Under the pieces are notes generated by a model, which did no database searches, was not told where the DNA came from, and saw only the letters and a list, made by a program, of their open reading frames with translations. Positions 1,352-20,688 of a stretch of DNA of 24,000 nt are shown piece after piece. The stretch comes from Actinomyces israelii DSM 43320 (GTDB taxonomy: Bacteria; Actinomycetota; Actinomycetes; Actinomycetales; Actinomycetaceae): NCBI RefSeq assembly GCF_000711965.1, contig NZ_JONS01000013.1:10545-34544 (forward strand), written 5' to 3'. A program made the position numbers and the translations under genes. Position 1 is the stretch's first letter, and the number at the start of each line of letters is the position of its first letter.

Positions 1352-1393
1352 CGCCCCAGCCTACGGGGCAGGGCGGGGTCCGGGGGCGCCGTC

Positions 1394-1433
1394 GGACCGA
1401 TCTCGGTGCGGAAGTGGACCGATCCCGGCGAAG
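1394..1433 (+). repeat. tandem-unit intergenic repeat, copy A (GGACCGATCTCGGTGC-GGAAGTGGACCGATCCCGGCGAAG)
   Basis: Two direct ~22-nt units aligning with copies B, C and D. It lies in the 122-nt nadE-HAD spacer, in the opposite orientation to both genes. Confidence 0.7.
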
Positions 1434-1473
1434 GGGCGCGGCGGGGCGCAGCGCACGGCGCGCCCCGGCGCGC

Positions 1474-3753
1474 TCAGGCAGGCGGAACGTTGCGCTCGAG
1501 CTCGGCGATCCAGGCGGCTGCGCCGGCGTCCGAGGGCATGCGCCAGTCGCCGCGCGGGGACAGCGAGCCGCCCGCGACCACCTTCGGCCCGTTGGGCAGC
1601 GTGGAGCGCTTGAACTGGTTGGAGAAGAACCGGCGGAGGAACAGCAGCTCCCACCTCCTGATGGCCGCCAGGTCGTAGGCGACCCGCTCCTCCTCCGGCA
1701 GCCCGACCGGCCACCGGCCCTCACCCGCGTCCGCCCAGGCCTTCTCCGCCAGGAAGGCGATGCGGCTCGGCCGGGACCCGCGGCGCAGCACGTGCCACAG
1801 GGTGAAGTCCTGCAGGGCGTAGGGGCCGATCCTGGCCTGGGTGGACTGGATGGGCTCGCCGTCGTCGGCGGGCACCAGCTCGGGGCTGATCTCGGTGCCG
1901 AGGACGGCCAGCAGCACCCGCCCGACGTCGTCGGAGAAGATCCGCTCGGACACCACCCAGCGGATGAGGTGCTGGATGAGGGTCTTGGGGATGCCGGCAT
2001 TGACCCCGTAGTGGGCCATCTGGTCGCCCACCCCGAAGGTGCACCAGCCCAGGGCCAGCTCGGACAGGTCGCCGGTGCCCAGCACGATGCCGCCGCGCCG
2101 GCCCGCGATGCGGAACAGGAAGTCGGTACGCAGCCCGGCCTGGACGTTCTCGAAGGTGACGTCGTAGACCTCGCGCCCGCGCTCGCCGCGCCCGTAGGGG
2201 TGGTCCATGGCGGCGAGCATCTGCTCGGCGGCGGGACGGATGTCGAGCTCCTCGACGTGGCAGCCGAGCGAGCGGGCCAGGGCGAGCGCGTTCCGCCTGG
2301 TCTCGGCGCTCGTGGCGAAGCCGGGCATGGTGATGGCGTGGACGTGCTCGCGGCCAAGGCCGAGGCGGTCCACGGCGCGGGCGGCCACAATGAGCGCGTG
2401 GGTGGAGTCCAGCCCGCCGCTGACGCCGATGACGATCCTGGGCAGCCCGATCGCGCGCAGCCGCTGGACCAGGGCGGCGACCTGGATGCTGTAGGCCTCG
2501 TAGCAGTCCTGGGCGAGGCGGGCAGGGTCGTCGGGGACGAAGGGGAAGCGGTCCACGGCGCGGCGTAGGCCGATGTCGGTGCGCGGCGCCCGCAGCGTCC
2601 GCCGCCCGATGCGCACGGTGCGGAAGCGACCGGGCCCGACGGCGTCCGCAGCGCCGGGCGCGGGGGCGCCGTCGGGCCCGGGGTGCCCCCGCCCGGGGCG
2701 CCCTGGCCCGCCGAGGGCGAGCGCCGCGCGGTTGTCGTCGAAGGAGCCCTGGCGCAGCCGCTCGGCGCGCAGCCCCTCGATATCGACGTCGATGACCGTG
2801 GCGCGCGGCCCGTCGGGGAAGCGCTCGGTCTCCCCCAGGAGGTCGCCGTTCTCATAGACGAAGGTCTGACCGTCCCAGGCCAGGTCCGTGGACGACTCGC
2901 CCTGCCCGGCGGCCGCGAACACGTAGGCGGCCAGGCCCCGCGAGCTGGAGGCGCGCGCCAGGAGCTTGCGGTCCTCGGCCCGGCCCACGGTGATGGGCGA
3001 GCCGGAGAGGTTGACCAGCACGGTCGCCCCGGCCAGGGCCGCCAGCGACGACGGCGGCACGGGCACCCACATGTCCTCGCAGACCTCCACGTGGAAGGTC
3101 AGGCCCGGCACGTCGGCGACCTCGAAGAGCAGGTTCGGGCCGAAGGGCACGCCAGCGCCGCCCTCCCGGTTCCCGACGGCGGGGGTCGCCCCTGCGCCGT
3201 CGCGGTGCCCGACGGCGCCGCCCTCCCCTGCGCCGTCGCGGACTCCCGGCAGGGAGATCCGCCGGGCCGCCGCGCTGCGCCCGTCGGCGCCGTCGGCGAA
3301 GTGCCGCTTCTCGTAGAACTCGCGGTAGGTGGGCAGGTAGGACTTCGGGACGACGCCGCGCACGGCCCCGCCCTGGATGACGACAGCACAGTTGTACAGG
3401 CGGTTGCCCTCCCGCAGGGGCGCGCCGACGACGATCGCCGGCAGGAGCCCGGCGGAGGCCGCGCGGATGGTCTCGATGGCGGCGAGGACCTCGTCAAGCA
3501 GCACGTCGCCGAGCAGCAGGTCGTCGATGGAGTAGCCGGTCAGGCTGAGCTCGGGGAAGGCGGCCAGGCACACGCCGTCGTCGGACAGGGTGCGGGCCTG
3601 CTCAATGATCGCCGTCGCGTTGGCGGCGGGGTTCGCCAGTGCGACGGGCAGGGTGACGGCGGCCACGCGCGCGAAGCCCTGGTCGTAGGCGGAGCGGAAC
3701 TCGATGGCCGGCCGGCCGGTGGCGGGGGGCGGCGTGGGTGCGTCCTGGTGCAT
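1474..3753 (-). CDS. nadE: glutamine-dependent NAD(+) synthetase (N-terminal CN-hydrolase/glutaminase domain + C-terminal NAD synthetase domain)
   Basis: 759-aa ORF. The N-terminus has the nitrilase-type 'AAFPELSLTGY' and 'EVCEDMW' catalytic Cys region. The C-terminus has the ATP-pyrophosphatase P-loop 'GVSGGLDST'. SD GGGAGGA lies 7 nt upstream of the ATG at 3753. Confidence 0.9.
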   Translation of the reverse strand: MHQDAPTPPPATGRPAIEFRSAYDQGFARVAAVTLPVALANPAANATAIIEQARTLSDDGVCLAAFPELSLTGYSIDDLLLGDVLLDEVLAAIETIRAASAGLLPAIVVGAPLREGNRLYNCAVVIQGGAVRGVVPKSYLPTYREFYEKRHFADGADGRSAAARRISLPGVRDGAGEGGAVGHRDGAGATPAVGNREGGAGVPFGPNLLFEVADVPGLTFHVEVCEDMWVPVPPSSLAALAGATVLVNLSGSPITVGRAEDRKLLARASSSRGLAAYVFAAAGQGESSTDLAWDGQTFVYENGDLLGETERFPDGPRATVIDVDIEGLRAERLRQGSFDDNRAALALGGPGRPGRGHPGPDGAPAPGAADAVGPGRFRTVRIGRRTLRAPRTDIGLRRAVDRFPFVPDDPARLAQDCYEAYSIQVAALVQRLRAIGLPRIVIGVSGGLDSTHALIVAARAVDRLGLGREHVHAITMPGFATSAETRRNALALARSLGCHVEELDIRPAAEQMLAAMDHPYGRGERGREVYDVTFENVQAGLRTDFLFRIAGRRGGIVLGTGDLSELALGWCTFGVGDQMAHYGVNAGIPKTLIQHLIRWVVSERIFSDDVGRVLLAVLGTEISPELVPADDGEPIQSTQARIGPYALQDFTLWHVLRRGSRPSRIAFLAEKAWADAGEGRWPVGLPEEERVAYDLAAIRRWELLFLRRFFSNQFKRSTLPNGPKVVAGGSLSPRGDWRMPSDAGAAAWIAELERNVPPA

Positions 3754-3982: not shown

Positions 3983-4045
3983 TTTCCTCGTCGGAACGCG
4001 GACGACACGAGGGGATCAGGGACCCTGTTGACTGTCGTCGCGTTC

Positions 4046-4063
4046 GGGGATGTCGCGATTCAG
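4046..4063 (+). repeat. direct repeat GGGGATGTCGCGATTCAG (partner at 4168-4186)
   Basis: About 16/18 identity with one gap to the second copy 122 nt downstream. A shorter relative, GGGGATCAGGGACC, sits at 4012-4025. Confidence 0.5.
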
Positions 4064-4087
4064 GGACCGCGCCCCCGAGCCCGACAC

Positions 4088-4118
4088 GAGGCCCCGCACC
4101 GCAAGGTGTCGGGGCCTC
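4088..4118. terminator. 9-bp GC hairpin GAGGCCCCG-N13-CGGGGCCTC
   Basis: Perfect stem 4088-4096/4110-4118. An alternative, mutually exclusive stem is CCGACAC (4081-4087) with GTGTCGG (4106-4112). On the + strand it is followed by CCTCTGTTCTCC, a weak T tract. Confidence 0.4.
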
Positions 4119-4167: not shown

Positions 4168-4186
4168 GGGGGACGTCGCGATCAGT
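4168..4186 (+). repeat. direct repeat GGGGGACGTCGCGATCAG (partner of 4046-4063)
   Basis: See 4046-4063. The two copies flank the twin hairpins. Confidence 0.5.
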
Positions 4187-4192
4187 CGAGTC

Positions 4193-4235
4193 CCGGCTCG
4201 GGATCGCTTCGCTTCCGCGCCGAGACCGGTTCACC
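4193..4235 (-). repeat. tandem-unit repeat, copy F (partly decayed)
   Basis: The reverse complement is TGAACCGGTCTCGGCGCGGAAGCGAAGCGATCCCGAGCCGG. Its first TGA is the TetR stop codon (4233-4231). Confidence 0.55.
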
Positions 4236-4941
4236 CGCGGGCATCGGCGTCGATCCGCCACCGCTCCCGCAGCCCGTCCACGAACATGCGGACCTCCGGC
4301 TCCATCGAGGTGGCCAGGCACTGGTCCGCGGCGCTGTCCGGCGTCGTCGAGCACAGCCACTGGATCTGGAGCCCGTCGCTGAGGGCCACGACCGACCGGG
4401 CGATCATCCGCGACGGAGCCTCCGGACGCACGGTGCCCGTCTCCTTCCCCCGCTCCAGCGCCTCCTCGATCATCCTCACCGAGCCCGCCAGATGACTGGC
4501 GAACCACCGGTGAGCCGGATGCTCGGCGTCGAGCACGGACACCGCCGTCGCCGCGTAGATCGCCACGAGGTCCCGGTGAGCCGAGTTGTGCGCGACCAGC
4601 GCCACGAAGGCGTCGAGCAGCTCCCACGGGTCCTCGATCGCGCCACCACCCATCACGCCGACGAAGTCGTCCTGGTCCCGCCGCGCCAGCACCCGGGCGA
4701 AGAGCGCCTCCTTGGAGGAGAAGTGGTGCAGCAGCCCCGCCGTCGAGATGTCCGACGCCGTCGCGATATCGGCCAGGGACGTGCCGGCGTATCCGTGCGC
4801 CCCGAACAGCGCGATGGCCTCGTTGAGGATCCGCTCGCGCTTGTCCTCGCCGCCGGCCCTGGGGCGGCCCGGCTTGCGCCGATCGGCCTCCTCGATCTCG
4901 GAGGGATAGTCACCGGGGGAGGCACTGTCAATACTGTTCAT
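4231..4941 (-). CDS. TetR/AcrR family transcriptional regulator
   Basis: The N-terminal HTH 'RILNEAIALFGAHGYAGTSLADIATASDISTAGLLHHFSSKEALF' is typical of TetR_N. I chose the ATG at 4941 (MNSIDS...). The 82 extra codons in the track ORF are Arg/Ala/Pro-rich and look like noise. No SD is present, so the mRNA may be leaderless. Confidence 0.85.
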   Translation of the reverse strand: MNSIDSASPGDYPSEIEEADRRKPGRPRAGGEDKRERILNEAIALFGAHGYAGTSLADIATASDISTAGLLHHFSSKEALFARVLARRDQDDFVGVMGGGAIEDPWELLDAFVALVAHNSAHRDLVAIYAATAVSVLDAEHPAHRWFASHLAGSVRMIEEALERGKETGTVRPEAPSRMIARSVVALSDGLQIQWLCSTTPDSAADQCLATSMEPEVRMFVDGLRERWRIDADARG

Positions 4942-4989
4942 ACCAGCATTGTGGCACCGGGTCCCGCCCGCGCCCGGCAGGCGCGTCCC

Positions 4990-5030
4990 AATATCTCGAA
5001 CTGATCTCAGCGCGGAACTGATGCGCGCGG
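4990..5030 (+). repeat. decayed copy H of the tandem-unit repeat
   Basis: The sequence AATATCTCGAACTGATCTCAGCGCGGAACTGATGCGCGCGG aligns to GAACCGATCTCGAGCCGG..AACCGATCTCGG. It lies immediately upstream of TetR, in inverted orientation relative to copy F. Confidence 0.4.
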
Positions 5031-5483
5031 GCCCGGCGGCCGCGCGACCATTCTTCGACGGCGGGGCTCGGCTTGTCCGCAGTTCGGGTGCCGCCCCGGG
5101 GACGGCCCGCAACTGGTGCGCACGCGCTCCTTGCGCGCCGGTACGCGGGGCGGCCGCGGCAGGCCGGCACGCATTCGCCCATCGCATAACACCGCGCCCC
5201 CTCCCGGTGCAGCAGCAGTCTATGAGGATTATCCATGGGACTTATGCGAATATGATTTCGAGGATGACCGTGAGAGCTCCGGGAAGGTTCCAGGTGGTTG
5301 ATTCTGAAGGGAGGCTCAATCCTCGCGGTCCTACGTTGGCTCGCGTGGCCGTACCTTAGGCGACCGGCGACCGCGGCCCTCAAGCACGACCGCGAGAGCT
5401 TCGGGTTGTCGCCAGTCCAGGTCGGCCTCCCGGGGGTCCCGGAGAGCCGATGGAGGCCCGACGGCGGACGCCCCGAGTCCCCT

Positions 5484-5568
5484 TGAACCGATCTCGAGCC
5501 GGAAGCGGACCGATCTCGGCGAACGGGCGGCGGCCGCCGCCGGTGGACGGGGAGGGTGCCGGCGCGGG
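5484..5568 (+). repeat. tandem-unit repeat, copy B, with downstream GGGGAGGGTGCCGGCG box
   Basis: TGAACCGATCTCGAGCCGGAAGCGGACCGATCTCGGCGAACGGG occupies 5484-5529. Its first 22 nt are identical to copy C. The box GGGGAGGGTGCCGGCGCGGG lies at 5549-5568. Confidence 0.8.
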
Positions 5569-6012
5569 CACCTACAGCGTCCCGAACGAGAGCACCTCCA
5601 CGGCCACCCACACGCAGAAGTCAGCCGGCTGCTGACCCTGAGGCGGAGGAGGGCATCATTCCTTTGCCGACGCTCAACCCGCCACAAGCAGCAACGCACC
5701 CAGCGTAAGCATGAGCGAAGCGGCTACATGCCGCTCACTACTCAACCTGGATATCACTGGGTCTCACCACGTACCCCAAAGAGCGCAGAAAAGGTCCCGG
5801 CCCAGCGCGCACCATAATGAGAGGCCTGGTCAGGGGAGGATTGATTGGGTTTGCAGCATCGGACTGGGGCGAAAGAGACCGATGCCGCCATTTATGTGTT
5901 CTGCATAATATCCGGGACCGAGTCTCACGAGTCGCACGTCCACCCACCCTGCGGAGCGCCTGGCCTCGACGCGGGCCCGGCCCGCCTGCCCCACTTCCCC
6001 GCCCAGAAGCCC

Positions 6013-6052
6013 GGCCGGGGGCGGCAGGTGAACGCGCCTGCCGCCCCCGGCC
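6013..6052 (-). terminator. 16-bp perfect GC hairpin downstream of clpB
   Basis: GGCCGGGGGCGGCAGG (6013-6028), loop TGAACGCG, CCTGCCGCCCCCGGCC (6037-6052). It lies 64 nt past the clpB stop. There is no U tract, which is common in high-GC actinobacteria. Confidence 0.5.
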
Positions 6053-6115
6053 CGCCAGCCGTCGGTGCACGCCGTCCGGCTCAGGCCGGCCTCAGAGCCC
6101 GCCGCCCCGCCAGGC

Positions 6116-8830
<2,715 letters not shown>

Positions 8831-8980
8831 GTGGACCTCCTTGAAGTCGTTCAGACGGCGCAGGTCCTGGCGGGCGGGGCGGTCGGGGGCCCGCTCCTCC
8901 GGTGGTGCCGGTGGCGGTGAGGTCCCGGTCCGCGGGCCCGCGGGGGTCCTGGCGTCTCCGGCCAGTGCAACCTCGCCAGA

Positions 8981-9001
8981 GCTGAGTCTATTCCGCTCAG
9001 C
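8981..9001 (-). promoter_or_regulatory. HAIR-like inverted repeat (candidate HspR operator) overlapping a clpB promoter
   Basis: The minus strand reads GCTGAGC-GGAATAG-ACTCAGC, compared with the HAIR consensus CTTGAGT-N7-ACTCAAG. It sits within TTGCCA-N15-TAGACT (-35/-10 on the minus strand), about 150 nt upstream of the clpB start. hspR is present in this window. Confidence 0.5.
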
Positions 9002-9231
9002 TTACTGGCAAGCCGGGCGCTTTCTGCGATGAGCGCCACACGGGCCCCTTGGCGCGCCCCGCAAAGACGCCGGACCCTTGCACGCGCCGCCCACGGAGGA
9101 CCGGCGCACGCGGCGCCCTTGACACGGAGCCGTCGGGCACGCGGCATGATCGCCGCCAGAACCACGACCGTCGCCGACACCGAGACCTCCGCCGGACGGC
9201 GACCGGCACGGCACCGGTGGCGGCGGCTGTC

Positions 9232-9258
9232 GGCGGCCCCGGGGGTCGCGACCGGCGC
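9232..9258 (+). repeat. 27-bp direct repeat GGCGGCCCCGGGGGTCGCGACCGGCGC (copy 1)
   Basis: 26/27 identical to 9293-9319, with a 61-nt period. It contains the palindromes CCCCGGGG and GGTCGCGACC. Confidence 0.7.
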
Positions 9259-9292
9259 TGCGCGGAGGCCGCGCAGGCTCTCGCTGGCGAGT

Positions 9293-9319
9293 GGCGGCCC
9301 CGGGGGTCGCGAACGGCGC
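9293..9319 (+). repeat. 27-bp direct repeat (copy 2)
   Basis: GGCGGCCCCGGGGGTCGCGAACGGCGC; see 9232-9258. Confidence 0.7.
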
Positions 9320-9330
9320 GATCGCCCCCG

Positions 9331-9397
9331 GCATCGATCTGCCCCGCGGGGGGGGGGCGCCCGGGGAGGGCTGAGCGGGAAGCGGACGGACTCCGGC
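9331..9397 (+). repeat. possible disrupted copy G of the tandem-unit repeat, containing a G10 tract
   Basis: CATCGATCTGCCCCGCGG (unit 1-like) is followed by an insertion containing G10 (9348-9357) and GGGGAGGGCTGAGCG, then GGAAGCGGACGGACTCCGGC (unit 2-like, 9378-9397). Confidence 0.3.
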
Positions 9398-9487
9398 AGT
9401 GGGTACTTCTGCCCACCGCCGCGCCAGGACCATCGCATACGGTGAGAAGTGTTCTTCAGCAACGACTCCAAGCACCGGGAGACACTC

Positions 9488-10156
9488 ATGAAGACCTTCC
9501 ACCGTGTAACCGCCGTCACTGCCGCAGCGCTCCTGTCCGCGTCCCTGGCGGCATGCTCCTCGACCAGCCCCAGGAACGATTCCAGCGGCGACTCCAAGGA
9601 TCAGGAGAGCTCGGCCCAGCCGACAGCCGTATCCGCTCAGCCGGCGCCCGCCGGATACCAGATGGTCACCACGTCCACGTCGAAGATCTCCTTCGCCATT
9701 CCCGATAACTGGCAGATCCTGAGCAAGGACGCCGCCCAGGACGACCAGCGGGTTCAGGCTATCGCGGACGCGCTCGGCAAGAGCCCCGACGAGGTCCGCA
9801 CGATGCTCTCGTCCCTCGACATGCAGGCCATGTCCACGGCTCCCGACGACAAGGGATTCACCGAGAACGTGAACGTCGAGCCGGTGACAGGGCCCACCTC
9901 CCTGCCGACCGAGAACGACATGTCCCAGATGATCCAGGGGCAGAACGGCACACCGGGCGAGTACTCCACCACGCAGACCGCGCTCGGGGAGGTCGCCGTC
10001 ATGACCTACACCATGACCGTCCAGACCACCACGGTGCAGGGCGCCGTAATCGCCGTCCGGACCAAGGACGGCACCTGGACTCTCATCTGGGTGTCAACCT
10101 CAGAGACCTCCCGCGCCAAGGAGCTGGCCGGCATCATCACGTCCACGCTGTCCTGA
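9488..10156 (+). CDS. secreted lipoprotein, unknown function (paralogue 1)
   Basis: ATG at 9488 preceded by GGGAGA at 5-nt spacing. Signal peptide plus lipobox 'LLSASLAAC'. The mature domain resembles the neighbouring gene (for example 'TPGEYSTTQTALGEVAVMTYT'), and the overall layout is reminiscent of LpqN/PsbP-like lipoproteins, which is a guess. Confidence 0.8.
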   Translation: MKTFHRVTAVTAAALLSASLAACSSTSPRNDSSGDSKDQESSAQPTAVSAQPAPAGYQMVTTSTSKISFAIPDNWQILSKDAAQDDQRVQAIADALGKSPDEVRTMLSSLDMQAMSTAPDDKGFTENVNVEPVTGPTSLPTENDMSQMIQGQNGTPGEYSTTQTALGEVAVMTYTMTVQTTTVQGAVIAVRTKDGTWTLIWVSTSETSRAKELAGIITSTLS

Positions 10157-10403
10157 CGCCCCCACCCTGACGCCTCCGCCTCCTCAACACGCCTGTTCGC
10201 GTCCGCGTCCCGACTACGCTCATCGCAAACACGCGGGAACGAGCAGACGGGCACCGCCATCACGGGAACCCCGCCGGAGCGGCCACCTCGCCGCCGGGCA
10301 AGGTGCACTCGCACCAGCCCGGCGGGGGCCTTCTCCCCGTCTGCTCCGATCGTGATCGTCACATACTGTATAGACGGTTCCTCTGCAATATCGGGAGACG
10401 ATC

Positions 10404-11063
10404 ATGAAGGCCTTTTCCTGCGCGACCGCCGCAGCAGCAGCATTGCTGTCCGCCTCCCTGGCGTCCTGCTCATTGATCGGCTCCGAGGATGACCGGGGCG
10501 TCACGGCGCCAACGGGCACGGCCTCGCAGAGCGCCGAGCCGACGGATGCCTCCACCGACGGGGCCGACGACGACTACCAGACGGTCACGGCGCCCTCAAC
10601 GCAGATCTCCTTCGACGTCCCTGCAAAATGGAAGGTGATCAGCAACGACGGCCAGGGGACCGCGATTATCGCCGAGACGCTCGGCGTCGGCACCGACGGG
10701 GAGGCCCATGCGCTCACGGCCGTCGACCTGGAGGCCATCGCTCCGAAGCGCAGGAAGAAGGGCTACGCGGAGAACGTGAGCGTCGCACCGGCGGCGGAGT
10801 TCTCCTCCCTGCCGAGCGAGGAGACGCTGTCCGAGCTGATCCGGACATGGGGGGCCACCCCGGGCGAGTACTCCGTTTCCGAGACGGCCCTCGGAGACGC
10901 CGCTGTCATGACCTCCTCCATCACCGAGTACGCCACCGCGGTGCAGGGCGCCTCAATCATTGTCTCGAGCAAAGACGGCGACTGGACGACCATTACGGTG
11001 CTGACATCAGACGCCTCCCGCACCAAGGAGCTGACCGACACCATCATCTCCACCCTGTCCTGA
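10404..11063 (+). CDS. secreted lipoprotein, unknown function (paralogue 2)
   Basis: ATG preceded by GGGAGA at 5-nt spacing. Signal peptide plus lipobox 'LLSASLASC'. It is colinear with 9488-10156 ('QISFDVPAKWKVISND', 'TPGEYSVSETALGDAAVMTSS', C-terminal 'TKELTDTIISTLS'). Confidence 0.8.
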   Translation: MKAFSCATAAAAALLSASLASCSLIGSEDDRGVTAPTGTASQSAEPTDASTDGADDDYQTVTAPSTQISFDVPAKWKVISNDGQGTAIIAETLGVGTDGEAHALTAVDLEAIAPKRRKKGYAENVSVAPAAEFSSLPSEETLSELIRTWGATPGEYSVSETALGDAAVMTSSITEYATAVQGASIIVSSKDGDWTTITVLTSDASRTKELTDTIISTLS

Positions 11064-11183
11064 CGCCCACGAGCCGCCCGCCGCCCACATCATTTTGTGA
11101 CTCGCGGCGCCCGCGCCGGCGTGCCATGCTGTAGCCAGGCCGGTGCCGCCCGGCACCGCGCACCCCGACGAAAGGAGGTCGCT

Positions 11184-11366
11184 ATGGGACTTGGTGACCT
11201 GACGAGCAAGGCTGGTGAGCTCCTCGGCTCCGACAAGAGCGAGGCCGTGACCGATCAGGCTCTCGACAAGGCCGCCGATGCCGCCAAGAAGGCGACCGGC
11301 GGCAAGCTCGACTCCCAGGTCGAGGCCGTGCGCGACGCTGTCGACTCCAAGATCGGCAGCGCCTGA
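11184..11366 (+). CDS. small Rv0909/MT0933-like ('antitoxin-like') protein, 60 aa
   Basis: Strong SD AAAGGAGG (11171-11178) lies 5 nt before the ATG at 11184. 'MGLGDLTSKAGELLGSDKSEAVTDQALDKAADAAKKATGGKLDSQVEAVRDAVDSKIG' fits the helical K/D/A-rich pattern of that family. A hairpin follows at 11403-11434. Confidence 0.65.
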   Translation: MGLGDLTSKAGELLGSDKSEAVTDQALDKAADAAKKATGGKLDSQVEAVRDAVDSKIGSA

Positions 11367-11402
11367 GCCCAGGAGCATTGAAGCGGCCCTGTGATCGCAG
11401 GT

Positions 11403-11434
11403 GAGCCCCGGCGCCCCGCGGGGTGCCGGGGCTC
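11403..11434 (+). terminator. GC-rich hairpin after the 60-aa gene
   Basis: GAGCCCCGGC ... GCCGGGGCTC is a 10-bp stem with an internal CCCCGCGGGG palindrome. A second perfect 10-bp hairpin, CCCAGCCCAG-N7-CTGGGCTGGG, lies at 11467-11493. Confidence 0.5.
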
Positions 11435-11541
11435 CTGCGCTCCGGCCGGCCCGCCCGACGACGGGCCCCAGCCCAGCGAGCCCCTGGGCTGGGCGGGGGC
11501 CCGGCGGGCCCCCGCCCGGGAGCCTCCTGCACAATGCCCCC

Positions 11542-13875
11542 ATGACCGACCCGACCGACCCGACCGACGCAGCCCCCGCCCAGCCCGGCCTGCCGCCCGT
11601 GCCCGCCTGGCTCGACGACATCGAGGGCGACCGGGCCCTCGCCTGGGTCGCCGAGCACAACGCCGCGACCCGCGCCGTCGTCGAGGGAGCCGAGCGCTTC
11701 GAGGCCATCCGGGCCGAGACCGAGGCGATCCTCGACTCGCCCGACCGCATCCCCGCCGTCGGCCAGGCGAACGGCCTGCTCTACAACTTCTGGACCGACG
11801 CCGACCACCCGCGCGGCCTGTGGCGCCGCACCACCTGGGAGTCCTACCGCGCGGGCGCCCCCGGTCGGGCCGACAACGGCACCGCTGCGTCAGGCGCGGC
11901 CTCCGCCGAGACCGGCACCCGGTGGGAGGTGCTGCTCGATCTCGACGCGCTCGGCGAGACCGAGGGCGTCGCCTGGGTGTGGCACGGCGCCCAGGTCCTG
12001 CGCACCGGGCCCCTGGCCGGTCGGCGCGCCCTCGTGACCCTCTCCGACGGCGGTGCGGACGCCGATGTCACCCGCGAGCTGGACCTCGACACCGGGCGCT
12101 TCATCCCGCCCGCCGAGGGCGGCTTTCACCGCGGGGCCTCCAAGGGGTCGCTGTCGTGGGCCGACGACGAGGGCGGCTCGGTGCTGGCCCTGACCGACCT
12201 CGGCGAGGGCTCCTTGTCCCCCTCCGGGTACCCGCGCCAGGTCAGGCGGCTGCTGCGCGGCCAGCAGCCGGCCGAGGGCGAGGTCCTGCTGACCGCCGCA
12301 GCCGACGACGACGGCGCCTGGGCCCACCGCGACCGCTGGGGCCGCACCTGGCTGCTCACACGCCCCGACTTCTACACCGAGGAGCTGTGGCTGCTTCCCG
12401 ACGGCGCCCCCGCCCTCCCGGCGTCGTCGGGACCGGGCGCCCTGGCGGAGGCCTCCGCGACCGTGGCCCCGGGAGCCGTGCACATCGACGTGCCCGCCTC
12501 CGCGGAGGCCTCCGCCGTGTGGGACTGGCTCCTGGTCAGCCTGCGCGAGGACTGGGAGACCGGCGGCGCCGTCCACCGGGCGGGCTCGCTGCTGGCCGCG
12601 CCCCTGGAGGACTTCCTGGCCGGCGGGCGCGACTTCGAGACCCTGTTCGCCCCGACGCCGTCGGCCTGTCTGATCGGCTTCACCGCAACCGCCCGCCACC
12701 TGGCCCTCACCCTGCTCGACGACTGTGCGGCCGCCCTGGAGGTGCTCACGCCCCCGCGCGCCACCACCGGCGGGTGGGCGCGCCGCCCCCTGGACCTGGG
12801 CGCGCTGGCCGGGAGGCCCGATGCCGGCGCCCGCGCCGATGCCGAAGCCGACGCTCCTGCGCGGCCCGACGCGCAGCCCGACCCCACTGCGCTGCGCCCG
12901 GGCCGGCCCCTGATCGAGGTCAGCGCCACCGCCGTCGACGGGCGGGAGGGCGACCGGCTGTGGCTGACGACGTCGTCCTTCACCCGGCCGACCACCCTCA
13001 TGGCGGGCGAGCTCGACGACGACGGCGCCCTGACCGGCGTCGAGGTGCTGCGCGCCGCGCCGGAGCGCTTCGATGCGACCGGCGTCGAGGTGAGCCAGCA
13101 CGTGGCGGTCAGTGCGGACGGCACGCGCGTACCCTACTTCCAGATCGGGCGGCCGGTCGCCGACGCCGAGGGGCGCGCCGCGGGCGGGCCGACGATCCTG
13201 TACGGCTACGGCGGCTTCGAGGTGCCACTGGGGATCGGGTACCTTCCGGTGACCGGCAAGGCGTGGCTGGAGCGGGGCGGCACCTATGTCATTGCCAACA
13301 TCCGCGGGGGCGGGGAGTACGGGCCGGCCTGGCACCGCGCCGGGCTCAAGGAGCACCGGCACCGCGTCTACGAGGACTTCGCGGCGGTCGCCCGGGCGCT
13401 GAGCGAGCGGGGCGTCGCCGCGCCGGGGCGGCTGGCCGTGCACGGGGGCTCCAACGGCGGCCTGCTCGTGGGCAATATGCTCACTCAGTACCCCGACCTG
13501 GTCGGGGCGGTGCTGTGCGAGGTGCCGCTGCTGGACATGCGCCGCTATACCCACCTGCTGGCCGGCGCCTCCTGGCGGGCCGAGTACGGGGACCCGGACG
13601 ACCCGGCCCAGTGGGAGTTCATCCGGACCTTCTCCCCCTTCCACCTGCTGGAGGCCGGGCACGACTACCCGCCGGTGCTGCTGGTGACCTCGACCCGGGA
13701 CGACCGGGTCCACCCGGCGCACGCGCGCACCATGGCCCACCGGCTGGAGAGCCTGGGGCAGGCGGTGACGTACTTCGAGAACTCCGAGGGCGGGCACGGC
13801 CGGGCCTCGACCAATGCGCAGCGGGCCTTCATGAGCGCCCTGACCTACGACTTCGCCTGGCGGACCCTGCGCTAG
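11542..13875 (+). CDS. prolyl oligopeptidase family (S9) serine peptidase
   Basis: The C-terminal alpha/beta-hydrolase domain has the nucleophile 'GGSNGGLLVG', 'TSTRDDRVHPAHA' (Asp) and 'EGGHG' (His). The N-terminal propeller begins 'WLDDIEGDRALAWVAEHN'. I chose the ATG at 11542 (MTDPTDPTD...); the upstream 47 codons of the track ORF cross two hairpins. Confidence 0.85.
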   Translation: MTDPTDPTDAAPAQPGLPPVPAWLDDIEGDRALAWVAEHNAATRAVVEGAERFEAIRAETEAILDSPDRIPAVGQANGLLYNFWTDADHPRGLWRRTTWESYRAGAPGRADNGTAASGAASAETGTRWEVLLDLDALGETEGVAWVWHGAQVLRTGPLAGRRALVTLSDGGADADVTRELDLDTGRFIPPAEGGFHRGASKGSLSWADDEGGSVLALTDLGEGSLSPSGYPRQVRRLLRGQQPAEGEVLLTAAADDDGAWAHRDRWGRTWLLTRPDFYTEELWLLPDGAPALPASSGPGALAEASATVAPGAVHIDVPASAEASAVWDWLLVSLREDWETGGAVHRAGSLLAAPLEDFLAGGRDFETLFAPTPSACLIGFTATARHLALTLLDDCAAALEVLTPPRATTGGWARRPLDLGALAGRPDAGARADAEADAPARPDAQPDPTALRPGRPLIEVSATAVDGREGDRLWLTTSSFTRPTTLMAGELDDDGALTGVEVLRAAPERFDATGVEVSQHVAVSADGTRVPYFQIGRPVADAEGRAAGGPTILYGYGGFEVPLGIGYLPVTGKAWLERGGTYVIANIRGGGEYGPAWHRAGLKEHRHRVYEDFAAVARALSERGVAAPGRLAVHGGSNGGLLVGNMLTQYPDLVGAVLCEVPLLDMRRYTHLLAGASWRAEYGDPDDPAQWEFIRTFSPFHLLEAGHDYPPVLLVTSTRDDRVHPAHARTMAHRLESLGQAVTYFENSEGGHGRASTNAQRAFMSALTYDFAWRTLR

Positions 13876-13913
13876 CCCGCCGAGATCGGTCCGCTGCACC
13901 GAGCCACAGCGAG
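13876..13913 (-). repeat. tandem-unit repeat, copy E (first unit decayed); fills the entire peptidase-Fic convergent spacer
   Basis: The reverse complement is CTCGCTGTGGCTCGGTGC-AGCGGACCGATCTCGGCGGGC. It begins directly after the Fic TAG (13916-13914). Confidence 0.55.
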
Positions 13914-14552
13914 CTACTCGTCAAGCACCTCGACGAACGGAGCGAAGCGGGCGTAGTAGTCGTCCTGCAGCGAGCGGAGCGTCTCGCGCAGGAACCCGGG
14001 CTGGTGCTCGTACTCGTTGAGACCCCGGTAGTAGAAGAGCTTCGTGGCGTCGAGGACGATGAAGGGCATGAGGCCATTGCGCAGGCACTGCTGGAACATC
14101 AGCATCCGGCCGACCCGGCCGTTACCGTCCTGAAAAGGGTGGATGCTCTCGAAGCGGTGGTGGAAGTCCGCGACGTCGTCGAGCGTCATGGACCCCGGCG
14201 TGCGCGCCAGAAGATCCTCGATCGCCGGCCCGACGCGCCCAGAGGCGACCGTCTCCCGCCCGCCGACGACGTTGGGCACGCGCTTCCAGCCGCCGACGGC
14301 AAAGGACGGCCTGCGGGCGTCGGCCGTCCCGCGCTTGAGGATCCGGTGGTAGTCCTTCATCACCGCTGCCGTGATCGGCTCGTCGAACCGGTCGAGCACG
14401 GCGTCGAACAGCTCAAAGCCGTTGACGGTCTCCACAATGTCGTCAACGGGGAGGGCATCGCCGGCAATGGTGCGGGTCTCGTAGATGTAGCGGGTCTGCT
14501 CCTCATCGAGGCGGCTGCCCTCGATCCGGTTGGAGTTGTAGGCCATGAGCAC
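13914..14552 (-). CDS. Fic/DOC family protein (class II, AMPylase-type); the 5' end appears frameshifted, and the intact gene would start at 14656
   Basis: Fic active-site motif 'HPFQDGNGRVGR' (HxFx[DE]GNGRxxR). N-terminal inhibitory-helix motif 'SNRIEG' ([ST]xxxE[GN]). A separate 23-codon ORF head (ATG 14656, SD GGAGG, about 96% GC3) reads into a different frame near 14587-14592. Confidence 0.8.
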   Translation of the reverse strand: MLMAYNSNRIEGSRLDEEQTRYIYETRTIAGDALPVDDIVETVNGFELFDAVLDRFDEPITAAVMKDYHRILKRGTADARRPSFAVGGWKRVPNVVGGRETVASGRVGPAIEDLLARTPGSMTLDDVADFHHRFESIHPFQDGNGRVGRMLMFQQCLRNGLMPFIVLDATKLFYYRGLNEYEHQPGFLRETLRSLQDDYYARFAPFVEVLDE

Positions 14553-14700
14553 CTGGTTGAGGTGGTAGAGGCCGCCTTCATCCGGGTGCGGCGCTGCTCG
14601 CGCAGGGTGCGCGCGAAGCGCGCGGGGTCAATGGCGTACTCGCCCTGCTCGGGCATGCCGCACCCCCTCCCCGATCCGCAGGGCTTCCATGCTACGAGTC

Positions 14701-14757
14701 ACCCGCACCGAGATCGGTTCACTTCCGGCTCGAGATCGGTTCACTTCCACAACTTCC
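14701..14757 (-). repeat. tandem-unit repeat, copy C (two full units plus extra GGAAGT spacers)
   Basis: The reverse complement is GGAAGTTGTGGAAG-TGAACCGATCTCGAGCCGGAAG-TGAACCGATCTCGGTGCGGGT. A further decayed unit reaches back to the GNAT stop (14779-14777). The box GGGGAGGGGGTGCGGC (14672-14657) ends at the Fic ATG. Confidence 0.8.
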
Positions 14758-14776
14758 ACATCGAGACGCCGTCGCC

Positions 14777-15256
14777 TCAGCACGCTCGAAGGTCGGCGCG
14801 CATGGCGGGGAACTTGTTGAGCGTGAAGCCGGTCTGCTCGTACATGCCCTGTCCCGCCTCGGTGGCCATGAGCTCGGCCCGGCCGATGCCGGTCGATGCG
14901 GCCCACCGCATCACCGCCTCGAAGGCCCGCCGGCCGTGCCCGCGACCGCGATGGGCCGGAAGAGTGCACACGTTGCTGACCAGCACGTCGCGGCCGTCGG
15001 GGACCTCGGGCGAGGGCGCGGCGTCCCGGACCGCCCCCATCGCGCAGGCCACGACCTCCCGATCCGCCTGCACGACGAAGATCCCGTATATCGGGTCCCT
15101 GATCCTCTCGAGGAACCAGCGACGCGCGTTGCTCCGCCACCGGCCATCCGTCATCGCCGTCCCCGTCATGCGGAACATCTCCTCGCGCAGCGCCACCAGA
15201 GCACTGACGTCGGGAACGGTCGCCCGTCTCACGACAATGGCATCATCCACGGTCAC
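14777..15256 (-). CDS. GNAT family N-acetyltransferase
   Basis: Acetyl-CoA binding motif 'VCTLPAHRGRGHGRRAFEAV' (Q/RxxGxG/A type) with typical GNAT length. The start is uncertain: GTG at 15256 (VTVDDAIVVRRATVPDV), 15250 or 15295. The rest of the 405-aa track ORF is antisense to the DUF2992 gene and looks non-coding. Confidence 0.75.
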   Translation of the reverse strand: MTVDDAIVVRRATVPDVSALVALREEMFRMTGTAMTDGRWRSNARRWFLERIRDPIYGIFVVQADREVVACAMGAVRDAAPSPEVPDGRDVLVSNVCTLPAHRGRGHGRRAFEAVMRWAASTGIGRAELMATEAGQGMYEQTGFTLNKFPAMRADLRAC

Positions 15257-15340
15257 GAAACTACCGTGGGCCCAAGCATGAGCAAAGGCCCTCACCCGGG
15301 CCGAGTCGAGGCATGCGCCACGGCGCTCCGTCGGCAGCGG

Positions 15341-15346
15341 TAGAAT
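15341..15346 (+). promoter_or_regulatory. -10 hexamer TAGAAT, candidate promoter of the DUF2992 gene
   Basis: It is the best -10 match in the 225-nt divergent GNAT/DUF2992 spacer. There is no good -35. It would give a ~130-nt leader. Confidence 0.4.
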
Positions 15347-15481
15347 CGCTCCATCAGATCCTGGTGCGCGAATCGCACTGCCCGGTAGGAAGTCCGGGCG
15401 GCACCCCGCCCGTGCCCGTCGCCTCGCCCCGTCGAGGAATCCGGCGTCACCAGGTCCGCTTCGGCGTACCTGGAGACAACA

Positions 15482-15907
15482 ATGGCGACGACTTTCACCA
15501 TCTTCTTCGACGGCCACCGGTGGGTGGGTGTTCTTGAGCAGCGCGACGGCGGCCAGATCCGAGCCGCTCGGGTCGTCTTCGGCCGAGAACCGAGCGGCGC
15601 GGAGATCGAGGACTGGCTCCGCCGTCACGGCAACGACCTCATTGCCCGCGCGTCCGCTGCGCAGCCCATCGACGACGGCGGCCGCCCGGCAATGCGGGCG
15701 CGCAGTCCGAAGCGCGCCCAGCGCGAGGCCGCCCGGCAGGCGCGCCAGCCGCACGGCGCCACCGCCTCCCAGCAGGCCCTCGCCGCAGACCGGGAGGCAC
15801 GAGCCGCAGCCCGCGCACAGGACGAGGCCGCCCGACGTCGTCGGGACCGCGAGGAGGCGTGGGCGAGGCGACGCGCACGCGCCCGAGCGCGCCACCGGGG
15901 CCGGTGA
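15482..15907 (+). CDS. YjdF-family protein (DUF2992)
   Basis: The N-terminus 'FTIFFDGHRWVGVLEQRDGGQIRAARVVFGREPSGAEIEDWL', the central 'SPKRAQREAARQ' and the basic tail ending 'RHRGR' match the DUF2992 pattern as I remember it. SD GGAGA lies 5 nt before the ATG. Confidence 0.75.
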   Translation: MATTFTIFFDGHRWVGVLEQRDGGQIRAARVVFGREPSGAEIEDWLRRHGNDLIARASAAQPIDDGGRPAMRARSPKRAQREAARQARQPHGATASQQALAADREARAAARAQDEAARRRRDREEAWARRRARARARHRGR

Positions 15908-15967
15908 ACCGATCTCGACGCGGAGCTGGACCGATCTCGGCGAAGAGGGGCGAGGGTGCCGGCGGGG
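15905..15967 (+). repeat. tandem-unit repeat, copy D, with downstream GAGGGTGCCGGCGGGG box
   Basis: TGAACCGATCTCGACGCGGAGCTGGACCGATCTCGGCGAAGAGGGG is followed by CGAGGGTGCCGGCGGGG. The first TGA (15905-15907) is the DUF2992 stop codon. Confidence 0.8.
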
Positions 15968-16168: not shown

Positions 16169-17371
16169 CTACTGGGCGTTGAGGGCCGCCGTCGGGGGCG
16201 TGCGCGCCGCCCGCACCGCCGGGTACAGCCCCGCCACCGCGCCGATAATGACCGTGACCCCCAGGCCCGCCAGGATGATGAGCGCCGGCAGGGAGAAGGG
16301 CCAGCCGTTGGCGGCCGCCACCCCGGCCGTCACCCCGACCCCGATGACGCAGCCCAGCGCTCCTCCCAGCCCCGCCAGAAGCAGGGCCTCGGCGAGGAAC
16401 TGGATGAGGATGTGGCTGCGCATCGCCCCCAGGGCCCGTCTCAGGCCGATCTCGCGGCGCCGTTCCAGCACCGAGATGATCATGGTGTTGGCCACCCCGA
16501 TCCCGCCCACGATCAGGGCGATCGAGCCGACCCCGGTCAGCAGGCTGGTGAAGGCCTGGTCGGCGGCGTTCTTGGCCGCCAGCGCGTCCGAGGGCCGCGA
16601 GATCTTGACGGCCCCGGGCGCCTGGGGCGAGATCGTGGGGCCGAGCAGTTCTCTGACCCGCTCGACGGCCTTGTCCGCGCTGCGCTCGTAGATGGTCGTC
16701 GGATTGCCCGCGTAGCCGAACAGCCTCTCGGCCACGGGCGCCCCGATGAGCGCCGCATTGTCGAGCTCGGGCGCCAGCACCGACGGCTTGAGGATCCCCA
16801 CCACGGTGAAGGACGTCCCGCCGAGCCACACCTGGGTGCCGGGCTCCACCACGCCCAGTCGCCGGGCGGCGGAGGCCCCGAGCACGGTGGACGGGTAGGA
16901 GGACGTGGCCGGGTTGAGCCAGGCCCCCTTGTCCACCTCGCCGGCGACGACGTCGAGCAGCCCCGGCTCGGCCACCAGGGCCGAGATGCCGCCGGTCGCC
17001 GCCTTGTCGCTCAGGGAGTTGCGGTAGACGGAGGCTTTGACCAGCGAGGTCGAGCTCGACTGCTGGACGCCGTCGATCTTGTTCACGCGCCCGACGGCGT
17101 CGGTGGGGAACTTGACCTCGGTGCCGGTCAGGTCGGAGCCCGGCGTGAGGGTGAGCATATTGGTGCCCAGGGACTCGAGCTGGGCGGTGAGCTGGGCCCG
17201 GCTGGAGGTGGACACGCCGACCACCGCGATCATGGCCGCGATGCCGATGGCGATGCCCAGGGCGGACAGGAAGGCGCGCATGGGTCGGGCTCGCAGGCCC
17301 GTTCCGGCCAGGCGCAGGATGTCGGCCGGACGCAGGTGCGAGCGCTTCGGGCGCGTCGTCGTCGAGCTCAT
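16169..17371 (-). CDS. ABC transporter permease, MacB/FtsX type
   Basis: 400 aa. One N-terminal TM helix ('[20 protein letters not shown]'), a ~220-aa extracytoplasmic domain, and a C-terminal FtsX 3-TM bundle ('IGLRRALGA'). The start ATG overlaps the upstream stop (ATGA). Confidence 0.9.
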
Positions 17372-20687: not shown

Positions 20688-20688
20688 C

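Follow-up and report, generated by a model that had tools for sequence, protein, structure and literature searches.

Interspersed 22-bp tandem-unit repeats of Actinomyces lie with fixed polarity at the 3' ends of genes

Results

The window, by which we mean the whole stretch of 24,000 nucleotides of Actinomyces israelii DNA that was analysed, holds six arrays of a 22-bp unit (A, F, B, E, C and D). The unit consists of a nearly invariant 10-nt core, ACCGATCTCG, followed by R-N-S-CGGAR and then by three variable bases, and a complete element is made of one to eight such units in tandem, closed by a short G-rich tail (CGAARGGGG). There are eight exact copies of the core in the window, where 0.09 would be expected, and all eight are intergenic. 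The features are listed below.

1393..1438, + strand: array A, two units with cores at 1396-1405 and 1418-1427, tail CGAAGGGGCG
4177..4233, - strand: array F, the TetR stop TGA (4233-4231) followed by three progressively decayed units with cores ACCGGTCTCG (4230-4221), AGCGATCCCG (4208-4199) and ACTGATCGCG (4186-4177)
4998..5010, + strand: isolated decayed unit, GAACTGATCTCAG
5298..5486, + strand: open reading frame of 62 codons ending on the TGA of array B, not a credible gene
5484..5529, + strand: array B, two perfect units with cores at 5487-5496 and 5509-5518, tail CGAACGGGCG
13880..13913, - strand: array E, one perfect core (13890-13881) and one decayed unit (13913-13893)
14708..14776, - strand: array C, two perfect units with cores at 14740-14731 and 14718-14709, a decayed unit ahead of them
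15905..15950, + strand: array D, the DUF2992 stop TGA (15905-15907), cores at 15908-15917 and 15930-15939, tail CGAAGAGGGG

Array A is 45 nt from the stop of nadE (1474-1476, - strand), in what proved to be the canonical antisense position, and array F ends more than 400 nt ahead of the nadE start. Array B has the antisense orientation with respect to clpB (- strand), whose stop at 6116 is 597 nt away. Array E occupies the 38-nt gap between the stops of the S9 peptidase gene (13873-13875, + strand) and of the Fic gene (13916-13914, - strand), while array C, whose decayed unit starts within 3 nt of the GNAT stop (14779-14777), ends 155 nt ahead of the Fic start. The FtsX stop (16169, - strand) lies 229 nt past array D.

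An earlier note on this DNA had described the repeat as starting at the stop codon of a co-oriented open reading frame in five cases; two of these are exact, two hold through decayed units and one concerns a reading frame without coding signal. The element and the reading frame do share their orientation in all the claimed contacts. The base after the TetR stop opens ACCGGTCTCG, the core with one mismatch, and the base after the DUF2992 stop opens ACCGATCTCG. For Fic the contact exists in a loose sense only, since the 21 nt after the TAG are unit-like just in CTCGGTGC, and the perfect core opens 24 nt past the stop. For GNAT, a decayed unit (GACGGCGTCTCGATGTGGAAG compared with GACCGATCTCGATGCGGAAG) is indeed found within 3 nt of the stop, but no good unit is present there: the first one comes 33 nt downstream, with its TGA out of frame with GNAT, and the 3' flank carries an 11-nt partial duplication besides the decayed unit. 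The reading frame at 5298-5486 ends on the TGA of array B as described, but the evidence does not support it as a gene: it scores -9.0 for coding, matches no Pfam family and is absent from the public gene calls of the same DNA. The window therefore contains two exact and two approximate stop contacts among six arrays, a rate that exceeds that of related genomes, where 4 of 53 arrays (7.5%) are within 25 nt of such a stop.

The DUF2992 stop is the native one: the family as a whole keeps the C-terminus HRG[RH]*, and the related locus L076 has the identical TGA without the repeat. In TetR, the length of the C-terminal tail varies across the genus. We also noted that the codon usage of DUF2992 is atypical.

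Beyond the window, the repeat proved to be real and abundant, forming a family of tandem-unit elements that are interspersed between genes throughout the genus Actinomyces. We collected 113 arrays from 69 loci, the source always being Actinomyces, and 111 of the 113 are outside called genes. Adjacent units are spaced 22 nt start to start in 244 unit pairs, and conservation per core position is 95-100%. The core is kept in rumen Actinomyces species even though the spacers there are quite different, and in A. gerencseriae a palindromic head module of roughly 100 nt precedes many arrays, with the tail following them. In 44 kb of A. israelii DNA there are about 10 arrays. The family is apparently undescribed so far: a search of the literature covered, for the repeat sequence and for Actinomyces repeats, returned nothing relevant, no Rfam family matches any array at the gathering threshold or at permissive E-values, and searches for tRNA and tmRNA were negative. 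Tandem Repeats Finder misses the arrays because most copies in the window have fewer than two full periods. To our knowledge, the non-coding DNA of the A. israelii group has hardly been studied.

Placement relative to genes was assessed on 53 independent, best-annotated arrays from A. massiliensis, A. gerencseriae and rumen species, with the window excluded; genes at related loci were called with a codon-usage caller made for this analysis, which misses atypical genes such as DUF2992. The predicted enrichment of element starts at co-oriented stops was absent: at a distance of up to 3 nt there were 0 of 53 starts where 1.45 would be expected, and at up to 25 nt there were 4 of 53 where 9.1 would be expected. 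It is the tail end that lies near a stop, and that stop belongs to the anti-oriented gene (19 of 53 arrays within 25 nt, where 9.1 would be expected; P=0.0002). The arrays do show a strong bias in how they are oriented to the upstream gene, as the earlier note had anticipated, but its direction is the opposite of the one proposed: between genes of the same direction, the array is antisense to the upstream gene in 24 cases and sense in 4 (p=1.8e-4). In the same set, convergent contexts outnumber divergent ones 19:6. When all arrays flanked on both sides by called genes are counted, 72 have their 3' side toward a gene end and 26 toward a gene start, while for the 5' side the numbers are 49 and 49. 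The direction of the bias is alike in each species group, and three of four further arrays in the A. israelii DNA flanking the window are canonical. Adjacent arrays without a called gene between them are tail-outward in 15 pairs, on the same strand in 2 and of the opposite kind in 0; between convergent genes such pairs are always tail-outward, back to back, one array per gene.

Taken together, co-oriented stop contact is not the rule of the family, and most arrays are opposite in orientation to the gene that they follow. The arrays are features of transcription-unit 3' ends and have a fixed polarity, in which the tail end points toward the stop of the opposite-strand gene, so that the sense strand of that gene reads stop, C-rich stretch, (CGAGATCGGT...)n. 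The stop-contact pattern seen in the window does not recur outside it. In other genomes, stop codons and arrays are weakly in register (phase 0 of the 22-nt register relative to the co-oriented stop in 6 of 28, p=0.0014), and in these phase-0 cases the stretch between the stop and the array is mostly unlike units. Reading frames that end at array starts outside the window give low-complexity translations with no Pfam match, and none is gene-like.

Comparison of orthologous sites shows that the arrays are old residents of their positions, where whole 22-nt units have been gained and lost. Array E has one extra unit in contig L084 of the same species, an exact 22-nt within-species polymorphism, and counts 1 or 2 units within A. 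israelii. For array C, close relatives show 0, 2 or 3 units, and it is deleted in L077. Array D has two units in the window, one in L077 (where it opens right after the DUF2992 TGA), five in A. massiliensis and none in L076. The orthologue of array F is a single unit in L088 and a remnant with a shifted stop in L090; at the TetR locus, A. ruminicola has an array of opposite orientation 7 nt past the stop and A. radicidentis has no array.

The same comparisons show that arrays frequently mark the end points of insertions and deletions, including those of Fic and of a 3.2-kb cassette. This cassette (five genes, ABC/ArsR), found in some A. israelii contigs, is inserted at the site of array A; it is bounded on both sides by direct copies of the tail and core, the crossover falling within the core. 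In A. massiliensis there is no Fic gene, and arrays C and E are represented by one array between the S9 and GNAT stops, the GNAT contact being conserved. The isolated unit at 4998-5010 and array B bracket about 475 nt that are absent from L088, in which the equivalent of array B is about 50 nt past the clpB stop. In L083, a 340-nt deletion runs from the core-like CCGTGATCGG within Fic to the edge of array C. The loss of DUF2992 in A. massiliensis has just one end near an array.

With regard to folding, the hairpin formed by two adjacent units is more stable in the gene sense than in the array sense (minimum free energy -13.75 versus -10.72 kcal/mol, 244 unit pairs, p=2e-35). The variable R position is paired in 95% in the gene sense against 36-52% on the other strand, and the variable N position in 63-74% against 19-24%, a wobble pattern that has only two independent positions as its basis. 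With DNA folding parameters no strand asymmetry is seen, and the stability is unremarkable for the base composition (Z-scores -1.6 to +1.9). A single core (CCGA-TC-TCGG) cannot fold on itself, so the hairpin requires two adjacent units, and no two-sided compensatory covariation was found in the unit-pair hairpins because the core does not vary. A terminator scan returned 3 terminator-like sites against 2.5 expected, none at an array, and no U-tract or T-run follows the arrays in either orientation; the GC-rich hairpin with U-tract of an intrinsic terminator is thus not what the arrays present. The completely conserved, unpaired central TC/GA and the core shared by species with different spacers fit recognition by a protein no less well than a hairpin.

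Discussion

The detailed comparison of independent copies of a repeat can overturn what a single locus suggests, and here the stop-contact rule drawn from one window was reversed once it was tried on other arrays. On balance, we favour reading the repeat as REP/BOX-like, not MIRU-like, and as an element that accompanies gene 3' ends in a fixed polarity. The co-oriented stop contacts of the window would then be secondary. Arrays C and E would derive from a single ancestral array, which spanned the whole interval from the S9 peptidase gene to the convergent GNAT gene and which Fic later split. At TetR and DUF2992 the spacer would have been lost, including the unconstrained triplet before the core, leaving the constrained remainder of stop codon and core, so that the native TGA would occupy the place of the unit's variable triplet. 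Against this, two of six arrays with cores exactly abutting a TGA are more than spacer loss easily predicts. In the transcript of the upstream gene, neighbouring cores would pair as a hairpin of 10-12 bp with a central tandem G.A mismatch, and either this hairpin or a sequence-specific factor on the core would help to form or protect the mRNA 3' end; this mechanism is the least certain part of our proposal. A role in the 3' flank, as suggested in the earlier note, is plausible, given the association of the element with gene 3' ends and its strong orientation bias.

Among known systems, the REP and BIME sequences of enterobacteria and pseudomonads are similar in having hundreds of short extragenic copies per genome, concentrated just 3' of genes and between convergent genes, in composite arrays capable of forming hairpins. 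They are co-transcribed with the upstream gene, and they are known to protect mRNA 3' ends and to bind proteins. The Actinomyces arrays share the high copy number and the strictly extragenic location, and their positions point to the same 3'-flank preference. They differ in architecture: a REP consists of one palindrome and a BIME of REPs in alternating orientation, each unit being a stable imperfect palindrome, whereas the Actinomyces units are direct 22-bp repeats whose two-unit hairpin is about as stable as shuffled sequence. The host also differs, being a high-GC Gram-positive genus, and no RAYT (TnpA-REP) transposase was present in the loci examined. The BOX elements of Streptococcus pneumoniae (boxA-boxB(n)-boxC) likewise have variable tandem middle units between distinct end modules and are intergenic, abundant and variable in copy number; the head module and tail of the A. 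gerencseriae arrays are comparable end modules. The BOX sequences are unrelated, their unit is 45 nt as against 22 nt, and the Actinomyces arrays keep a much stricter polarity toward the upstream gene.

A second explanation, which we regard as possible although rather unlikely, is that the arrays are double-stranded DNA sites, with a sequence-specific protein bound to the core every two helical turns and exerting a polar effect at the ends of genes, for example as a transcription roadblock or as an organiser of the nucleoid or of topology. The ten invariant core positions, central TC included, the near-palindromic core (CCGA-N2-TCGG), its survival in rumen species despite different spacers and the 22-bp period, which keeps the sites on one helix face, all speak for such sites, as do the absence of covariation and of any thermodynamic excess over shuffled sequence. 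On the other hand, no candidate binding protein was identified, the strict gene-linked polarity requires an asymmetric complex, and the purines and pyrimidines at the two variable helix positions suit pairing on just one strand, although a degenerate R in the site would match them too. It could also be that a dedicated Actinomyces factor recognises the cores, which would combine a polar, lineage-specific 3'-end or termination signal with crossover points for gene blocks. We consider this improbable, but if it is true, about one in four transcription units would have its end marked, in a polar manner, by factor-bound arrays, and gene blocks (Fic, the 3.2-kb ABC/ArsR cassette) would enter and leave the chromosome at arrays, as in a dispersed, integrase-independent counterpart of integron attC sites.

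Still less probable, in our view, is that the cores are crossovers for a dedicated recombinase or transposase that moves cassettes, from which it would follow that cassette genes end right at an array. The 3.2-kb cassette between its direct copies, Fic between the direct arrays E and C (a single array in A. massiliensis), the segment of about 475 nt ahead of array B, the L083 deletion and the atypical codon usage of DUF2992 agree with this. However, most arrays, which are dispersed and unclustered, stand behind ordinary core genes (clpB, nadE, S9 peptidase and TetR, with TetR orthologues present across the genus), no recombinase gene is linked, no copy of the repeat came up in the viral-contig, phage and plasmid collections searched, only one of the two ends of the DUF2992 loss in A. 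massiliensis is near an array, and slippage or microhomology between units explains all the variants equally well. The attC sites of integrons, such as the Vibrio cholerae repeats, are comparable as repeated sites right after cassette ORFs that form an imperfect hairpin on one strand, and the Actinomyces gene blocks also lie between direct copies with the crossover in the core. An attC-type location 3' of a cassette gene applies to the 3.2-kb cassette and Fic; most sites are dispersed behind core genes, there is no integrase, attI or cassette array (no integrase is found among the genes of the window or of the loci), and it is the sequence itself that is conserved, not structure alone.

Equally doubtful is the MIRU-like reading, in which the element inserts at, or is selected to abut, a stop on its own strand and acts in the 3' UTR or between cistrons. 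Its best evidence is the core directly after the TetR and DUF2992 stops, the decayed units after those of GNAT and Fic, the GNAT contact shared with A. massiliensis, the phase-0 signal, and the DUF2992 TGA followed by 0, one or two units in L076, L077 and the window, which makes the array boundary exactly the native stop. Against it stand the scarcity of array starts near co-oriented stops, the 24:4 antisense excess, the array-start ORFs elsewhere that are not genes, and the phase-0 stretches that are mostly not unit-like. MIRUs are also tandem, intergenic actinobacterial units of strain-variable number (as for arrays E, D and C) and of defined orientation to flanking genes, and a few of the arrays do touch stops. 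But MIRU units are 46-101 bp long, lie between the genes of operons in the orientation of these genes, and contain small ORFs that share overlapping start and stop codons with the neighbours (translational coupling), while the Actinomyces arrays are mostly antisense behind the last gene, many of them between convergent genes, with stop contact the exception. The MIRU-like behaviour described in the earlier note is not borne out by the unit either, as no ORF runs through it, 22 is not a multiple of 3 and therefore breaks the reading frame, and no start codon is overlapped in the window.

Several other candidates were rejected. An OmpR/PhoP-type operator consists of direct repeats that are GTTCAC-like; only the TGAACC variant of the unit is similar, most units having CGGACC or TGGACC, and the arrays are behind genes, not at promoters. 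A CRISPR-like array does not agree with spacers of 12 nt that are themselves conserved, nor a replication-strand bias with arrays of opposite orientation back to back within a few hundred bp. Carriage by mobile elements was dismissed because a scan of viral contigs gave no exact match to the two-core pattern, and BLAST with a five-unit array had no match in the phage or plasmid collections. In other genomes, hidden genes ending at array starts were discarded on account of their low-complexity translations without Pfam match, and decayed units joining stops to arrays because, despite the phase-0 excess, the intervening sequence is mostly not unit-like.

The repeat family has several implications. 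A. israelii and its relatives are common oral bacteria and agents of actinomycosis, and about one array per 4-5 kb would rank this family among the densest interspersed repeats in any Gram-positive genome. The strict polarity behind genes suggests a lineage-specific way to end or protect transcripts. High-GC actinobacteria have few canonical terminators, and the arrays therefore bear on an open question. The link between arrays and the end points of insertions and deletions bears on the movement of accessory genes in Actinomyces genomes, and the changes in 22-nt copy number could serve directly as strain-typing markers.

Finally, an artefact of the Illumina PE primer, 11 nt of which resemble the core, was rejected, as independent isolate genomes carry the arrays at orthologous sites and differ in unit number. 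The likeness of the core to these 11 nt accounts for the literature matches to the sequence.

An Actinomyces family of 22-bp tandem repeats

Eight exact copies of the core ACCGATCTCG occur in the window (0.09 expected), all of them intergenic, and with a core-to-core spacing of 22 nt they mark six arrays, A, B and D on the forward strand and C, E and F on the reverse strand. When one genome per species was scanned for two cores 22 nt apart, at least 69 loci were recovered, and all 69 among the matches listed are from Actinomyces (A. massiliensis, A. gerencseriae, A. ruminicola, A. ruminis, A. succiniciruminis and one MAG). The window and these listed loci hold at least 113 non-redundant arrays of 2-8 units each, with the unit consensus ACCGATCTCG-R-N-S-C-G-G-A-R-N-N-S-G, conservation of 95-100% at core positions and a G-rich tail, CGAARGGGG, after the last unit; the rumen species keep the core and have a different spacer. 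The arrays thus form a genus-specific and abundant family of tandem-unit repeats. None of the Rfam families matches them, viral contigs scanned for the two-core pattern contained no exact match, phage and plasmid collections searched by BLAST with a five-unit array gave no match, and the literature that we searched nowhere describes such a repeat; the family appears to be new.

Larger modules accompany some arrays. In A. gerencseriae (loci L020, L041, L042, L059, L065 and L070), a second repeat module lies about 100 nt upstream, directly before many arrays; it consists of nested palindromes, CGAGTCGGGCAT...GAGTCCGACGAC-GGC-GTCGTCGGACTC...ATGCCCGACTCG, has no Rfam match, and makes up with array and tail a composite head-array-tail element. 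In A. massiliensis, a non-coding repeat of 300-450 nt, in which we found no convincing ORF, occupies the space between back-to-back arrays where the ends of two genes converge (L019, 4533-4985; L036, 2025-2372; L068, 3911-4405; partial copies in L018, L022, L047 and L054), its copies being 77-85% identical and in either orientation.

Polarity of the arrays relative to genes

The earlier note had proposed that the repeat tends to begin at the stop codon of a gene on its own strand (co-oriented), in the manner of MIRUs. We examined 53 arrays outside the window, from the loci among the matches listed, with both flanking genes no more than 400 nt away. Genes were called by a model of codon usage, for which long ORFs of high GC3 served as the training set; it reproduces the public calls of the window except for DUF2992, whose codon usage is atypical. 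Expected values were obtained by random placement and orientation inside the same gaps. Array starts are not enriched at 0-3 nt from a co-oriented stop (0 of 53, 1.45 expected), and 4 of 53 lie within 25 nt of one (9.1 expected). It is the tail end that is close to a stop, and the gene in question is on the opposite strand (anti-oriented): in 19 of 53 arrays the tail is no more than 25 nt from such a stop (9.1 expected, P=0.0002). We call this antisense placement behind a gene canonical. Nor does co-orientation hold as a rule, since between genes of the same direction 24 arrays are antisense and 4 sense (p=1.8e-4).

This fixed antisense polarity of arrays behind genes, with a forward gene followed by a reverse array or a forward array ahead of a reverse gene in the locus maps, is present in every species group. 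The 53-array set has 19 convergent contexts and 6 divergent ones, both types of gap being equally common in the loci; among the arrays listed, a gene end lies on the 3' side in 72 cases and a gene start in 26, and on the 5' side each occurs in 49. Back-to-back array pairs between convergent genes number 15 in the loci among the matches listed, and the opposite arrangement 0. Outside the window, no array start coincides with the end of a credible protein in an ORF check that was independent of the codon-usage caller. Four further arrays lie in 20 kb of flanking A. israelii DNA; three are canonical, and one of these provides the stop codon of the gene before it, as CGAGATCGG-TAG. One signal does concern co-oriented stops: outside the window, 6 of 28 arrays with a co-oriented upstream gene have its stop at phase 0 of the 22-nt register (p=0.0014; the distribution is flat in the three control classes of flank), the sequence from stop to array being mostly unlike decayed units.

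Stop-codon contacts in the window and at orthologous sites

The window has a G+C content of 72%; its FtsX and HAD hydrolase are identical to A. israelii RefSeq proteins, and the same DNA is found on the complete genome CP124548.1. Its gene map was drawn from Pfam scans and public gene calls on identical contigs.

Genes of the window (position, strand, product)
1-588, +, serpin
557-1351, -, HAD hydrolase
1474-3753, -, nadE
4231-4941, -, TetR
6116-8830, -, clpB
9449-10156, +, unknown paralogue 1
10404-11063, +, unknown paralogue 2
11184-11366, +, MT0933-like antitoxin
11542-13875, +, S9 peptidase
13914-14546, -, Fic
14777-15169, -, GNAT
15482-15907, +, DUF2992
16169-19331, -, FtsX/ABC/PG-binding operon
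about 20004-21954, +, two-component system

The two adjacent paralogues share DNA repeats 73-76% identical at a spacing of 907 nt, and no Pfam family matches either protein; the nadE coding sequence contains a 36-nt tandem repeat (3159-3241, 2.3 copies, 82% identity).

The stop-codon contact observed in the window is partly confirmed. Of the five cases claimed, two are exact and two approximate, and the fifth fell away. After the TGA of both TetR and DUF2992 the core begins on the very next base, so that the exact TGA-core junction exists at two of the six window arrays. A decayed unit does follow the GNAT stop within 3 nt, but the first good unit is 33 nt downstream; behind Fic a perfect core follows, but the first 21 nt after the stop are barely recognisable as a unit. 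The ORF at 5298-5486 has a negative coding score, no Pfam match and no place in the public annotation.

These contacts are probably explained by the filling of short gene-end gaps, arrays C and E seemingly occupying the whole gap between S9 and GNAT; by Fic, which would have inserted into an array; and, at TetR and DUF2992, by a presumable loss of all unconstrained sequence between stop codon and core. In A. massiliensis (DNA 81-90% identical), which has arrays of three units at the C site and five at the D site, C and E are united, because Fic is absent there, in one array that takes up all the space from the S9 stop to the GNAT stop. L076, a related contig, lacks Fic and GNAT, and window positions 13876-15480, within the S9 peptidase-FtsX interval, vary among close relatives (compared with L011, L076, L077 and L083).

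At DUF2992, L076 (73% identity) has the identical TGA and no array, and L077 (92% identity to DUF2992) has a single unit directly after the TGA, so the stop is native and coincides exactly with the boundary of the array. The family C-terminus is HRG[RH]* even in distant homologues, and A. massiliensis retains only the last ~20 nt of the gene. The coding score of DUF2992 is 0.9, against 17-460 in its neighbours, yet its Pfam match is strong; its codon usage, clearly atypical for the genome, suggests recent acquisition.

TetR belongs to the core genes of the genus, and its C-terminal tail varies in length. One unit follows its TGA in L088, and in L090 a unit remnant is present and the stop is displaced by two codons. 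Two lineages carry arrays in opposite orientations at this site, for the two-unit array of A. ruminicola, 7 nt behind the stop, runs the other way, in the canonical orientation; in A. radicidentis the array is absent. In the TetR-nadE spacer, 3985-4091 (+) gives a full-length Rfam match to Actinomyces-1 RNA at 33.6 bits, below the gathering score of 39.1; some 85 nt separate it from array F, and the stretch, together with a hairpin in it, GAGGCCCCG...CGGGGCCTC, is also conserved in L088, L090 and A. radicidentis L093.

Copy-number change and indels at the arrays

Arrays persist for long at orthologous sites and vary by whole units, as in L084 (A. israelii), where an additional, exact 22-nt unit lengthens array E. 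They are also often associated with indel end points. In L083 (A. israelii), 340 nt are deleted, from a core-like CCGTGATCGG within Fic as far as the array C edge, and Fic is 5'-truncated, and in the close relative L077 array C is lost between two CGAGA motifs. Some A. israelii contigs carry at array A a 3.2-kb five-gene cassette, present or absent within the species (L086, 4700-7900, also L087; corresponding to window 1352-1473), which encodes an ArsR-type HTH regulator, three unknown proteins and an ABC ATPase and has direct copies of tail plus core, CCCCTTCG-CCGAGATCGGT, on both sides. The clpB-TetR spacer is 130-137 nt across L088 and L090 (in L088 it is 137 nt and includes a canonical array); compared with L088, the window has extra blocks of about 590 and about 475 nt, the second having array B at one end and a decayed unit (4998-5010) at the other. 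In the window this spacer (4942-6115, about 1.1 kb) has a lower G+C of 0.67, shows no coding signal and matches no Pfam family.

Possible function and relation to known families

Adjacent cores are able to pair, CCGA/UCGG and UCG/CGA enclosing a 2x2 internal loop that reads as tandem G.A in the sense of the upstream gene. Over 244 unit pairs, the mean MFE is -13.75 kcal/mol in the gene sense, -10.72 in the other orientation and -10.6 for shuffles, and DNA parameters give no strand asymmetry. Two variable core-flanking positions are paired in 95% and 63-74% in the gene sense, via C-G or U.G, and in only 36-52% and 19-24% on the other strand. The pairing evidence is limited: it consists of these two independent positions, hairpin Z-scores against dinucleotide shuffles are weak, and double compensatory changes are absent among the unit pairs because the core never varies. 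Speculatively, the arrays may act on the transcript of the upstream gene as inter-unit hairpins, or a core-specific factor may bind them.

The invariance of the core also keeps a DNA-binding model fully open. That the arrays are recombination sites has a low probability, and this model is still alive because of the cassette junctions. Identity as an integron, CRISPR array, terminator or Rfam family was rejected; no U-tract or canonical terminator was found at the arrays.

The arrays fail three of the four MIRU features tested, and of the earlier reading the link to gene 3' ends is supported, but not MIRU-like behaviour as a rule. The closest likeness, in location, abundance and modularity, is to REP/BIME and pneumococcal BOX elements, from which the arrays differ in being built from direct 22-bp units and in their strict polarity. 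We consider the repeat family itself moderately interesting.
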